This document shows, in pieces, positions 6,315-31,885 of a stretch of 35,519 bases of DNA. Made by a program: the position numbers and the translations under genes. The notes under the pieces were generated by a model. That model saw nothing but the letters and a program-made list of their open reading frames with translations. It was not told where the DNA came from and made no database searches. Origin of the DNA: Pseudogymnoascus verrucosus (Eukaryota); the NCBI GenBank assembly GCA_001662655.1, contig KV460229.1. One strand, written 5' to 3'. The stretch's first letter is position 1, and each line of letters starts with the position of its first letter.

Positions 6315-7466
6315 CTACGTGACCAAGTAGCCACCGTCGACAATAATATCTGTGCTGGTTGCAAAGCTAGAGGCATTAGATGCAAGATAAAGGTAAGCAC
6401 CTTTCATCTCTTCTAGAAGAGCCAACCGACTGAGAAAATGCTACCATTAGCACGAGATAACAGCATAAATGGCAAGGGCATCTCGAACTAGGGAGTAATG
6501 AGGAAAATAATAGGACACATACCCTATAGGAGTCTTGTTTTTGAAATGGGTTAAGAGTTCTTCTAGAACTTGATGCATGACTTCTAAGGCCACATAACCT
6601 GGAGAGACAGTATTATAGTGCGTAAACCCAACCCATTCTACTGCGAGAGATTTGCCTATAAAGTAATGGTGAGATGTCTGCTTAAGGAGTGCCGAGCCTA
6701 GTGGGCATGATCTCGACTCACAAAGATGTATGACAGCCGCCTTAGAAGCGTTGTAAGGCGCCTGCTTTAATGGGATATTTACGACATGTCTACACATGCT
6801 TGCCGTAGCGATGAAACTGCCCTGCTTAAACCCTGCAAGATTGTGGCCACCCGTTGTCGTGCCTTCTGCTGCCTGTCTTCGCTAGTGCTTTCCTGCGGCC
6901 TAGGCGTAGAAGAAGACGCCGTCGAGATTCGTGGCCATTACTTTGCAGTAGTGCGAAGTGTCACCGTCAACCGCATCGCCTTAAAGCCATGGCACGCTGC
7001 TATTGGCAACGAATACGTCGAGACGGCCGTTGAATTCTCAGACGATTTAATTAATTATTTCTTTAATATCCAGCTCCGCTGTCACGTCTAGCTTGTATGC
7101 TCGGCCTAGAAATATCAGATGAACTGATAGCAATGGCGGTCTTTCACTAGTTTGAGAAGAAAGCAAAACGTAGGCGAGGGGAATAGAGGACTCTAACACT
7201 TAAATAAACTCACATTGCACTTTGTATGTTTTCTCAATCACCTTTGCGCCCTCGATGGATTTGTCCTTGTTACTATTATAGGTAAAAGCGACGTTAGCAC
7301 CTGATTCTACAAGGGCTTGAACGACTGCATGGCTAATTCCTAAAGCGGCTCCTGTTACGATGGCTGTCCTTCCTTTGAGCGAAAATAAGGGCAAGATTCG
7401 ATCGGCCACTAGTGCTATAGTATTATTATGTACAAAGTCGCCTCCATTGAATATTAGGCGTGACAT
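6315..7466 (-). pseudogene. Short-chain dehydrogenase/reductase of the mannitol dehydrogenase / L-xylulose reductase / sorbose reductase type
   Basis: LFSLKGRTAIVTGA, catalytic YNASK, NTVSPGY, YLYLAS and DIIVDGGY. Several introns. In-frame stops in FFYA*AAGKH*RRQ (about 6880-6905). Confidence 0.88.
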
Positions 7467-7532
7467 GGTTATTTACTAGGGACGTGAAGAGCAGCGATTC
7501 GAATGCAGGTAAAGGCAACGAGTTGACGGTTG

Positions 7533-7718
7533 TGTAAGGACACAGGGCACCGTATCACGAGAAGTTGCATATGGGAGTGCGAGTCGGATATAAGTCGGTA
7601 CAATCCTATAGGTCTACTACGAAGGTGGAGGAGGAGGGGGTGACCGTCGACCTTGGGTGATAGGCCCTGTGTCGGAGGGAACTCGGGCGTGGTCTTTCGC
7701 GTGGGGTCACTTCGACCC
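7533..7718 (+). repeat. Left terminal inverted repeat (186 bp)
   Basis: Reverse complement of 8837-9022; I found one mismatch by manual comparison (C/T at 8881). Confidence 0.95.
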
Positions 7719-8848
7719 AGTCGATCATTAGTGATCGCGGACCCCAATTCATATCAGCTTTCTGGCGAGAGTTCTGCCGAATCATAGGGGTCAAGATTAA
7801 GCTGTCGACAGCCTATCACAAGCAGACCGACGGGTAGACGGAAATCATGAATCGGTATATCGATCAGAGACTGAGGCCTTTCGTATCACATTACCAGGAT
7901 AACTGGAGCGAGCTCATTCCCATCATGGATCGGGTGCAAATGACCCTTCCCCATGCCTCGATCGGAATGACCCCCTACCGACTCAAGTACGGAACTGATC
8001 CGCGCACTAGTTGGGACTAGGAAACCCCGAAAGCCACGACCCCTAGGGAAGTCATGAACCAGAAGGAAGCCAAAGCAGTAGCAAACCGCATGCACTCCGC
8101 ATGGATTTACGCAAAGGAGAACATGGCTAAAGCACAAGAGGATATGTCTAAATACGCGAATTGACGCCGACGAGCCATTGACTGGGACGTAGGAGACAAG
8201 GTTTACCTATCGACTAAGAATCTGAAAAACCACCGCCCTAGCCGTAAGCTGGGGCAACAATGGGTCGGACCCTATACGGTACTGGAACAAATCGGACACG
8301 CCTTCCGACTAGACCTACCAAAGGGTTCCCAAATACACGACGTCTTCTCTCTAGACGTACTCATCAAGGCTCCGAATAACCCGCTGCCCGGTTAAGCAGC
8401 GCCTGAGCCAAGCAGCGAAGTCGTAGACGGCCTAGAGGAGTGGGAGGTCGAAAAGATCCTTGCCGTAAGGATCTGGCGAAAACAACTTCAATACTAGGTA
8501 TCCTGGGTCGGATACGATCCGGACCCGGAATGGTACCCCGCCTCAAACTTTAAGAACTCCCCCTACAAAATCCGGGAGTTCCACGCGGAGTACCTAAACC
8601 TGCCAGGACCGCCGCAGGACCTACCCGGCTGGATCACGGAATGGGAGACAGGCAAACCAAGCTACGATCACGAGAGGCACGGCAAAGCAGAGGAAAACAG
8701 CGTCGTTGCTACCTACGACACTAAACTAAACACCCTCTAAGCCAGGGCACCCTCAGAGCCGTAGCCCTTGCGGAAGCCACCCTTCCCAAACGTCTCACCG
8801 GCGTCGCAACAAGCGGCTACCACCATGAGAGACGAAGGGTCGAAGTGA
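7718..8848 (+). pseudogene. Ty3/Gypsy (chromovirus) integrase C-terminal half, Tf2-like SH3/GPY region and chromodomain
   Basis: One frame reads QSIISDRGPQFISAFW...STAYHKQTDG*TEIMN (second D and the E of DDE), GDKVYLSTKNL..RPSRKL..WVGPY, IHDVF and EWEVEKIL...Y*VSWVGYD..EWYPASNF. All stops are single-transition derivatives of CAG/CAA/CGA/TGG. The native stop is either 8740 or 8848. Confidence 0.92.
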
Positions 8849-9022
8849 CCCCACGCGAAAGACCACGCCCGAGTTCCCTCTGACACAGGGCCTATCACCC
8901 AAGGTCGACGGTCACCCCCTCCTCCTCCACCTTCGTAGTAGACCTATAGGATTGTACCGACTTATATCCGACTCGCACTCCCATATGCAACTTCTCGTGA
9001 TACGGTGCCCTGTGTCCTTACA
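8837..9022 (-). repeat. Right terminal inverted repeat (186 bp)
   Basis: Reverse complement of 7533-7718. Confidence 0.95.
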
Positions 9023-10406
9023 GGTTGTAAGATGAACAGAGAGGATGATATGGAAAACCTGCAGTGAACAGAGTTGTAGCGCCTGTCCTTCCGAATCCGG
9101 ACGTGAGCACTAGTAGAAAATTCAGGTACTTGGCTAGTACCTAAGCTTTGCACGGTTTATCTAGATGATGTCAAGTGCAGAGGTTGGAGACTAATGGCCT
9201 GGACCAAATATCTCGGAGCTTCGTGACAAGGTGTGTTAATTGCATCCTTAAGAGCATGTGAGGATAAGCTAGCTGTAGGTATCGTATCTGTAATCTAAGA
9301 GCTATGTCCGACGCCTCTTACCCTATGGAATGGCTAGTATCCATTCGTGGAGATTAGTTCTGTCCTAATGCCGGACTTCAAACATCGGTAGACATAGATT
9401 GCGGGTTGACGAGTAGCCGGCTTTCCGTAGTGCCAAACTCCGGGCTTTGGTAAATCCGCCTCTAGCTACCATTGCCACTGTAATTGCGTATTCACTCTGT
9501 TTTACGTATTGGATTTCCCCTTAGCTGACTGGGGAGTATGCAAGAACTCCACTTAGGCTTATTAATTATTCTTCCAACTTTGCTTATCTCTAGCGACATC
9601 TTCCTGTCCGGTTTACGAAGGCTTTCATTAAAACTAAGATATTCCCGAACTTTGCATATCAACCTTAGAATCAACTAGACACCTATAATATAGCTTGAAC
9701 TATGTCTTCTACGACAGAATCAACGATATACAAACTTATTTTCTCGGTACCGGTCTTGCATTTTGCGGCTGTTAAAACTGCTATCTACACTTCTAGTGCC
9801 GGCAATTTCCTAGGTTACACTAGCGTGAGCTTTTAGACTTAAGGCATGAGTGTGTTCTTGCTGAGTGGTGCGACAGAGCTAAACGAAATGGCTGAAACGA
9901 AGGTAGAGGTCTTTTGTTCTAGAAGAGTTTAAGCGGTTGCAGCCGTGGAGGCAATGAAGAAGTAAGTGATATCTTTGCTTAACGACTAGGGTTTAGGGGG
10001 ATGGCATGGAAAATGGTAACTAATGTTCTATTAAGGTCACATCTGTATAAGGCTGTCTCTTATGCTGTCTTTAAGGCGGAGAATATCTAGGGACTTAGAG
10101 AAGGAAACAGCGATACTTTGAAACCATCTTCGCCTGTGACGACGGCTTGTAAGGATACCCTCATCTAAATTACGGACGCACATTCTATACTTAATAAAGA
10201 GAAAATTTGTTTTCGACTTTAGGAAACCAACTAAACTTCCTTTTTTATTTGATTCATTATGACATACCTTGCTCTCATTGTCAAGTTTAAGAAGGTCATG
10301 TAGGCGGGTTTAAATAAGATAGATAAAACCCAATCTTTAAGTCTATCTCGACAGCCTACACACTGTCTTATAGTTTATAATACATTCATTTGAGTTTGAG
10401 TACTAT

Positions 10407-12273: not shown

Positions 12274-12646
12274 TTGCGCTGACGCAACTCTCAATTCCAA
12301 GCCGACAATACTTTGTCTACGCCATACTAGCCCCAAGCAGGCATTAGATGATTTTTGCGAAGCAAAACTGATACAAAGTACATCGTATACACCGTGAATA
12401 AGTAGACGAACTACTCTCTCGTTGCCCGAAACGCAAGGGATCTTCGGCAGATCAATTGCCTATTTCGGGGGTAGTAGTAGTTAGTTCTCAGTAAGCGCTA
12501 TACTACTCTAAAAGAGCTGCTTAGCCTGAGTTGTGAGGAGTAAGGTCATCGTAATGATAAATTGCAAATTGTCTGGTTTCGAAAGACGATTAAACTAGAC
12601 TCAAGGTAGGGTAACAAAATGTTCTTCGCCTGTGGCGTGCTGACGT
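12274..12646 (+). repeat. Dispersed repeat copy A (upstream of the acyltransferase)
   Basis: 12369-12646 is the diverged reverse complement of 23236-23516. 12391-12502 and 12274-12339 match copy C (31587-31773). Confidence 0.92.
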
Positions 12647-23235: not shown

Positions 23236-23665
23236 ACGTCAGCACGCCACAGGCGAATAACATTTTGTTATCCTACCTCGAGTCCAGATTAATCGTCTTT
23301 TGAAACCAGACAATTACTAATTTATCATCACGATAGCCTCACTCCTCACAATTTAGGCTAAGCGGCTCTTTTAAAGCAGTATAGCGCTTACTGAGAACTA
23401 ACTACTATCTCCCCCCCTAAAATAGGCAATTGATCCGCTGAAGATCCCTTGCGTTTCAGGCAACGAGGGAGTAGTTTGTCTTCATATTCACGGTGTATTC
23501 GATGTACTTCATATCATTCGAGCTTAGCGAAGCGAGAAGTTCTACTCCTACTTTATTAATCTTAAATAAAATCACGAATTCATTAACTAGAACATTCGAT
23601 TACAATATCACGACAATACAGATCTACAGGGTCTCACGCATCCCCCGTTGCAAATCCTATTTCCT
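23236..23665 (-). repeat. Dispersed repeat copy B
   Basis: 23236-23516 matches copy A inverted. 23380-23494 and about 23561-23665 match copy C directly. Confidence 0.92.
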
Positions 23666-31586: not shown

Positions 31587-31885
31587 TATAGCGCTTACTG
31601 AGAACTAACTACTCCCCCCCCCCCCCCCTTTTGAAATAGGCAATTGATCTGCTGAAGATCAATTGCGTTTTGGGCAACGAGGGAGTAGTTCGTCTTCATA
31701 TTCACAGTGCTTAGGGCTAGTATCGCGTAGACTAAGTATTGTCAGCATGGAATTAAGAGTTGCGTCAGCGCAATCTCCTTATTAAATAAGATCACAATTT
31801 CATTAAGTAGAACATTCGATTACAATATCACGACGATACAGATTTACAGGGTCTCGCGCATCCCCCATTGCAAATCATTTTTCCT
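31587..31885 (-). repeat. Dispersed repeat copy C (upstream of the hydrolase)
   Basis: Shares the core TATAGCGCTTACTGAGAACTAACTACT..AAATAGGCAATTGATC..ATTCAC with A and B, a 66-bp block with A only, and a ~105-bp block with B only. Confidence 0.92.

Follow-up and report, generated by a model that had tools for sequence, protein, structure and literature searches.

An inverted-LTR insert in Pseudogymnoascus verrucosus, probably an aberrant insertion of a known chromovirus family

The stretch of Pseudogymnoascus verrucosus DNA analysed here (35,519 nucleotides of contig KV460229.1, called the window below) carries at positions 7533-9022 an insert of 1490 bp, bounded by two inverted copies of a long terminal repeat (LTR) and enclosing the 3' end of a retrotransposon pol gene. 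The structure is, in our judgement, real, unusual and explainable, and probably represents an aberrant insertion of a known retrotransposon family and no new class of transposon. The insert is likely a single dead insertion from the 3' end of an ordinary ascomycete Ty3/gypsy chromovirus with Tf1/sushi-like relatives, whose polyprotein comprises protease (PR), reverse transcriptase (RT), RNase H, integrase (IN) and a chromodomain.

Structure and integration of the insert

The two arms (7533-7718 and 8837-9022) are inverted relative to each other, measure 186 nt each and leave 1118 nt between them. They were aligned by blastn with 185 of 186 positions complementary, the sole mismatch being 7674 G against 8881 T, which reproduces the inverted 186-bp termini of the original prediction. 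GGTTG is present at 7528-7532 and again at 9023-9027, each time directly outside an arm, and the outer tips read TGTAAGG on the left and CCTTACA on the right. TG..CA tips with a 5-bp duplication, here accompanied by a precise empty site in a related organism (see below), are those of a Ty3/gypsy chromovirus. The only LTR repeat within the window is inverted, as had also been predicted, so the direct LTR pair of an intact chromovirus is lacking. No further copy of the arm or of the interior was found elsewhere in the 35.5-kb window by blastn or tblastn. The sense direction of the left-arm LTR is leftward, toward a short-chain dehydrogenase (SDR) gene. The features of the insert, with the evidence for each, are the following:

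7528-7532, no strand: left target-site duplication GGTTG (read directly; single copy in the empty-site contig)
7533-7718, minus strand: left arm, reverse-complement LTR with some 3-9 nt of polypurine tract; the outer tip TGTAAGG is the complement of the U5 end (inverted repeat 185/186; X1 record 3)
7719-8740, plus strand: 3' fragment of pol (translation, Pfam, BLASTP, tblastn; the blastn match to the metagenome locus L001 starts at 7719)
8741-8826, plus strand: non-coding, from the pol stop to the polypurine tract (alignments with relatives)
8827-8845, plus strand: polypurine-tract-like plus-strand primer site GAGAGACGAAGGG, possibly continuing through TCGAAG, its last 3-9 nt lying within the arms (purine content, conservation)
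8837-9022, plus strand: right arm, 3' LTR in normal orientation, ending CCTTACA, with the U3 start within 8840-8846 (inverted repeat; X1 record 6)
9023-9027, no strand: right target-site duplication GGTTG (read directly)

Logan contigs of four runs (X1 from organism A, X2 from organism B, and also X3 and X6) were aligned to 6500-10000. The family is multi-copy, 236 X1 contigs being aligned over a range of identities. One contig of organism B (X2 record 10, 1065 nt) covers 7074-7527 and then 9023-9633, skipping 1495 nt and showing 18 other letters in all; it is a precise empty site carrying one GGTTG. Because a related organism holds such a site with a single GGTTG, the 1490 bp entered as one unit, as the original prediction had deduced from the duplication, and since the same contig joins 7527 to 9023 the duplication of GGTTG is not due to chance. 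A second version of the locus (X1 record 4, X2 record 11), with a divergence of ~7%, is also without the element. The left and right outer junctions are crossed with 0 differences by X1 record 3 (7074-7561) and X1 record 6 (8997-9633), respectively, and are therefore not scaffolding errors; X1 may be the window's own sample and hence does not count as independent support. Judged from these contigs, the insertion is real, recent and polymorphic between close relatives.

Two further observations concern the locus itself. In both organisms the two versions ~7% apart occur at similar depth (e.g., 226.8 of 443.6 in X1), and the insertion is present only in the window-like version of organism A; from the contig depths, this suggests a hybrid, diploid or duplicated genome. 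At the target, GGTTG is followed by TAAG (9023-9034), so that TGTAAG, that is, 6 of the 7 letters of the tip TGTAAGG, spans the insertion point of the empty site and forms a small palindrome with the CTTACA of the element. Its presence there may reflect either chance or a target preference.

Provenance of the interior and of the arms

Between the arms, 7718-8740 is a single frame, interrupted by five in-frame stops and closed by the natural stop TAA at 8738-8740. It corresponds to the last ~340 codons of a chromovirus Pol, comprising the end of the integrase core, the GPY/F-SH3 module (~8192-8362) and the chromodomain (~8441-8584). Pfam recognised rve, SH3_Tf2-1 and Chromo, in agreement with the integrase/chromodomain interior predicted earlier, with the restriction that only the last 35 positions of the core are present (rve profile positions 67-101 of 102). 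The DDE remnant consists of the second Asp and the Glu, the first catalytic Asp and the H2C2 zinc finger being missing. The integrase frame had also been supposed to run into the right arm as far as a TGA at 8846-8848; pol in fact ends 96 nt before the arm and that TGA lies in a different frame.

By BLASTP, residues 19-343 of the interior match residues 947-1271 of a 1283-aa Pol (P0002), a PR-RT-RNaseH-IN-chromo polyprotein, with 82% identity, and the left arm abuts integrase codon ~947. When the full Pol was used in tblastn, 7718-8692 was the sole match in the window; the insert thus has neither a primer-binding site (PBS) after a 5' LTR nor gag, PR, RT or RNase H. Homologues were searched among proteins of 630-2000 aa and the best 120 were listed. 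RT-linked RNase H (PF17917/PF17919) was found in all 120 of them and PF00078 in 106; the 14 listed homologues without PF00078 are shorter (648-833 aa) and all but one lie on contigs of ~2.3-4 kb. The closest DNA relative, the metagenome locus L001, shows 82% nucleotide identity from 7719 on and has one open frame with RNase H, H2C2 finger, full rve core, SH3 and chromodomain, the breakpoint 7719 mapping inside its rve core. In addition, ordinary integrase sequence matching P0002 runs upstream of 7719 in three contigs of two other organisms (two X2, one X6). Given the RT-bearing homologues, L001 and these upstream-continuing contigs, the family is an ordinary gag-pol chromovirus of which this copy is the 3' tail. 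An integrase core, GPY/F, a C-terminal chromodomain and an RT/RNase H polyprotein thus belong to the insert by derivation, the fragment itself being limited to the codons mentioned above.

The arms belong to the same family. In other copies the homology extends no further than 9022-9026, and four X1 and three X2 contigs there pass into unlike flanks, which identifies CCTTACA as the U5 tip of the LTR. This U5 end forms both outer tips of the insert, where a normal element would have the U3 start on one side. On their inner side the arms end at the border between polypurine tract and LTR, at which the plus-strand primer site meets U3. No polypurine tract had been recognised in the original prediction; GAGAGACGAAGGG at 8827-8839, with 12 purines of 13, is the most purine-rich 13-mer in 8690-8850, and its last 3 bases are the first 3 of the right arm (8837). 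In alignments the tract is identical in L001 and recognisable in the relative L002. It stands before the 3' LTR, direct contact between the two depending on the U3 start, which only a 5' LTR of the family would fix; L001 and L002 have a single LTR each and hence do not place it. The stretch from the pol stop to the tract (8741-8826) matches L001 more closely than the coding part does. A TATA-like TATAT is found within the right arm at 8963. In a more distant relative (L003, 55% protein identity), the LTR comes directly after the purine tract, starts TGTGACGG, is read as 192 bp and ends CCGTCACA; by comparison with this length, LTRs of ~180 bp are normal in the clade.

The conservation with L001 extends over 8741-8893 (L001 2200-2352), beginning at the pol stop and taking in the first ~57 nt of the arm, at a level above that of the coding region, and the remaining LTR, including the U5 tip, does not align. 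Such conservation near the purine tract suggests a cis-acting signal. In L003, 10 bases inside the LTR (128-137) are complementary by eye to 195-204, two bases past the LTR end, which looks like self-priming of the Tf1 type instead of a tRNA primer site. The possibility that the arm is only the R-U5 part of a longer LTR (a minus-strand strong-stop product) was set aside, as TATAT lies inside the arm, no TATA was seen upstream of 8837 and the L003 LTR is 192 bp long.

These data bear on the first of two readings in the original prediction, in which the insert is an internally deleted member of a chromovirus-derived cut-and-paste family with terminal inverted repeats (TIRs). In a family of this kind, integrase-driven and similar to Ginger, the present copy would be non-autonomous and would depend on a full-length partner for its movement. 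The 186-bp TIRs, TGTAA termini and 5-bp duplication match the Ginger/TDD pattern described in PMC2836005, but the arms are the family's ordinary LTR and end its ordinary copies. The GPY/F module is common to Ginger1; here, however, it sits in an interior 82% identical to an RT-bearing Pol, in a fragment deprived of the H2C2 finger and the first Asp. The whole-query homology search covered proteins of 630-2000 aa only, a range above the 197-629 aa of integrase-only relatives; all 120 best listed relatives carry RT-linked RNase H, and upstream of the breakpoint L001 and the three X2/X6 contigs alike go on with normal integrase. The contigs of the four runs and the predicted proteins yielded no further copy of the junction, both being weak negatives, and excision of integrated DNA is not known for integrases of the retroviral type. 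The cut-and-paste reading found no support and we consider it very unlikely.

The five stops, a point absent from the original prediction, lie at 7835, 8018, 8162, 8393 and 8495, and each is one transition away from the sense codon of P0002 (Q, W, R, Q and Q, in this order). The X1 depth with the sense letter was 220/1441 at 7835, 0/5243 at 8019, 246/785 at 8393 and 0/5177 at 8495, so that at these four places the depth of organism A is mostly or wholly of the stop letter, as in the window copy; at 8162, all of it (524/524) has the sense letter. One contig of organism B (X2 record 12, 1176 nt) has the sense letter at all five places. The differences between copies in X1 are mostly transitions (206 of 234), and this pattern, common to the copies, resembles repeat-induced point mutation (RIP). 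The source copy was probably already defective and copied in trans; as an alternative, the stops could have arisen by repeated RIP at the same sites. Only 1 difference was seen between the arms, against roughly 3.7 expected at the interior rate; this is a rough Poisson estimate from contig counts (P about 0.12), by which arm identity does not decide whether the stops came before or after the insertion. The element cannot move again as a retroelement, because it is without gag, PR, RT and PBS, its LTR promoters point outward, and what is left of its integrase, interrupted by five stops, has neither the zinc finger nor the first Asp.

A normal direct-LTR element might also have been rearranged afterwards, through an inversion combined with a deletion, or through recombination once a second, nested insertion had taken place. 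LTR elements are often rearranged by illegitimate recombination, and the RIP-like transitions show the passage of this family through genome-defence cycles, but such events would have had to place the U5 tip base-exactly at the left flank and keep GGTTG intact on both sides. The nested variant would moreover have left an outer U3 start at the left flank and a second integrase duplication, neither of which is present. We hold this later rearrangement to be highly improbable.

Proposed origin of the insert and its local setting

The second reading of the original prediction, an aberrant cDNA with two identical LTR ends, fits the two U5 tips, the 5-bp duplication, the empty site, the purine-tract border and the ordinary gag-pol family. 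We accordingly favour, with fairly good confidence, a one-off event in which integrase inserted an aberrant cDNA bearing U5 at both ends, or two joined cDNA pieces. The data show, or at the least strongly imply, that a DNA with two U5 ends was inserted by an integrase with the 5-bp stagger of the family. The right part of this DNA would be a normal 5'-truncated cDNA, running from integrase codon ~947 through the chromodomain and the polypurine tract to the LTR, and the left part a second, inverted LTR copy with its inner end at the polypurine/U3 border. Because of this inner end, the left arm has the extent of an LTR-length 'strong-stop' replication intermediate. The integrase of the family, supplied in trans, would have inserted both U5 ends at a cut with a 5-bp stagger, giving the duplication of GGTTG.

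For the joining of the inverted LTR to integrase codon ~947 we infer two routes, which we rate about equally: (i) during reverse transcription, a minus strand extended past U3 into the purine tract and a minus strand halted in the integrase gene could have primed each other, or a single minus strand could have folded back; (ii) during integration, an LTR-length strong-stop duplex and a 5'-truncated cDNA, both incomplete, could have been brought together by their U5 ends in one intasome, and after their concerted integration host end-joining would have sealed the inner ends. Autointegration was rejected, its products being circles which lack free ends.

Several points weigh against the aberrant-cDNA reading. 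The inner junction 7718/7719 is bridged by none of the listed contig pieces. At interior sites such as 8060, 8162 and 8230 the X1 depth is entirely of the other letter, and since the X1 contigs differ at several interior places they do not independently reproduce what lies between the arms. Clean microhomology is absent from the junction (CCCCAG then AGTCG in the native sequence, GACCC then AGTCG in the element), and an overlap of CCC would require an added loss of 2 nt. The TG at 8846 is CG in L001 and TT in L002 and does not fix the U3 start; the arm may be a whole LTR plus 3-9 nt, as the purine tract and the analogy with L003 suggest. No second copy of the inverted junction was found in the contigs of the four runs, which show presence and not absence, and no published account of such an insertion, nor of integrase acting on two U5 ends, was found in open-access text, where the matches to 'inverted LTR' with integrase all concerned DIRS-1.

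The junction was also searched as a peptide. No protein covering it was found among 5.8 billion; a near-length search (region 1-40) gave 8 candidates, none significant, and a shorter-length search (region 1-57) gave 13 matches, none with more than 72% query coverage and all to the integrase part only. An apparent joint between opposite strands in X3 (7697/8851) was considered as an inverted junction and rejected, this contig being read as an ordinary one that spans LTR and purine tract, has a 6-nt gap and maps to either arm.

Part of the above would also be expected of an assembly artefact, in which the outer U5 junctions are real and the part between them is mis-assembled or collapsed, e.g., from a larger head-to-head composite. 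The family is multi-copy, with 236 X1 contigs at varied identities, and the unbridged 7718/7719 and the interior places where X1 contigs have only the other letter point the same way; a graph assembler, however, needs reads or k-mers over the junction of reverse-complement LTR and integrase, whose sides share at most 3-5 nt. The end of the arm exactly at the purine tract is biologically meaningful and would not be expected from a mis-join, and even with such an error two outward U5 ends around one 5-bp duplication would be aberrant. An artefact of this kind is in our opinion unlikely.

The insertion lies 66 bp upstream of the ATG (7466-7464, minus strand) of the SDR gene (Pfam adh_short; 7200-7472), and the presumed promoter of the left arm, the mirror of TATAT at 8963, points into this gene in sense. 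Two bolder interpretations of the locus, which even together have a small chance of being right, could be issued: (i) the first captured step from an LTR element to a TIR transposon, in which two identical integrase-competent ends, flanking a remnant of integrase and chromodomain, can still be mobilised in trans; or (ii) a natural hairpin locus, in which transcripts reading through the insert would form a perfect LTR stem of 186 bp and supply the RNA silencing of the whole family, the outward LTR promoters rewiring the SDR gene. The Mu killer locus of maize is a precedent for a hairpin locus feeding RNA silencing.

If the aberrant-cDNA reading is true, the insert is a natural chromosomal record of a chromoviral integrase inserting two U5 ends in concert, and reverse transcription or the end-joining of cDNA can build a palindromic unit bounded by LTRs. 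Such units would be raw material for integrase-based TIR transposons such as Ginger. For annotation, the insert is a warning that TIRs, a target duplication and an integrase do not prove a DNA transposon. Locally, it may place an outward LTR promoter 66 bp upstream of the SDR gene, and it could yield a long hairpin directed at the family from which it derives. Being one dead copy, it is of modest general importance.

Elsewhere in the window, an unrelated dispersed repeat of ~280 nt is present three times with 76-91% identity (blastn coordinates 12369-12646, 23236-23516, 31587-31885 and 12274-12502, both orientations), and a host open reading frame resembles transferases of Ascomycota.

Comparison with known systems

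The insert shares with the fungal Tf1/sushi-type chromoviruses (Metaviridae) the integrase core, the GPY/F-SH3 module (SH3_Tf2-1), the chromodomain and 82% identity to a full Pol, as well as tips of the TG..CA type, a 5-bp duplication, a purine tract before the 3' LTR and the short LTRs of the clade (~180-190 bp). It differs from them in that its LTRs are inverted with both tips U5, and that the 5' LTR, PBS, gag, PR, RT, RNase H and the N-terminus of integrase are missing.

The Ginger/TDD transposons are defined, in PMC2836005, by TIRs, TGTNR tips, a transposase with an H2C2 finger and full DDE, and families without RT or RNase H; for Ginger1 and Ginger2-TDD the same source gives TIRs of 40-297 bp and short duplications, of 5 bp in TDD-4 and TDD-5. 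The insert resembles them by its 186-nt arms, TGTAA tips and 5-bp duplication, and Ginger1 has, in that account, a gypsy-like integrase with GPY/F. The match in TIRs and TGTNR tips is simply a feature of LTR ends. Ginger as described there keeps H2C2 and a complete DDE, whereas the insert has only rve 67-101 of 102 and no H2C2. The Ginger families are without RT or RNase H, whereas the insert holds a broken C-terminal part of a Pol with RT, and what would be its 'TIR' is the LTR of that family. In the same source, Ginger1 adds OTU/Ulp1 domains and most Ginger duplications are of 4 bp, against 5 bp here. A multi-copy architecture with the same TIRs at different sites was not seen in the contigs of the four runs, which cannot show absence, or in proteins.

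Among retroelements, DIRS retrotransposons also have inverted terminal repeats. They use a tyrosine recombinase and make no target duplication, unlike the insert with its DDE integrase remnant and 5-bp duplication. L1 'twin priming' yields 5'-truncated insertions with an inverted 5' part and one target duplication, through target-primed reverse transcription and with neither LTRs nor integrase. By analogy, the outline is alike, since a second priming or a template switch would give a truncated insert with an inverted segment and one duplication, but here the inverted segment has the length of an LTR, and integrase can use the ends as substrates. A further parallel is offered by retroviral integrases in vitro, which carry out concerted integration of two U5 donor ends with the normal stagger on synthetic donors. 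In both cases two like ends are inserted in concert, and the insert described here would be a natural, chromosomal product of such a reaction.

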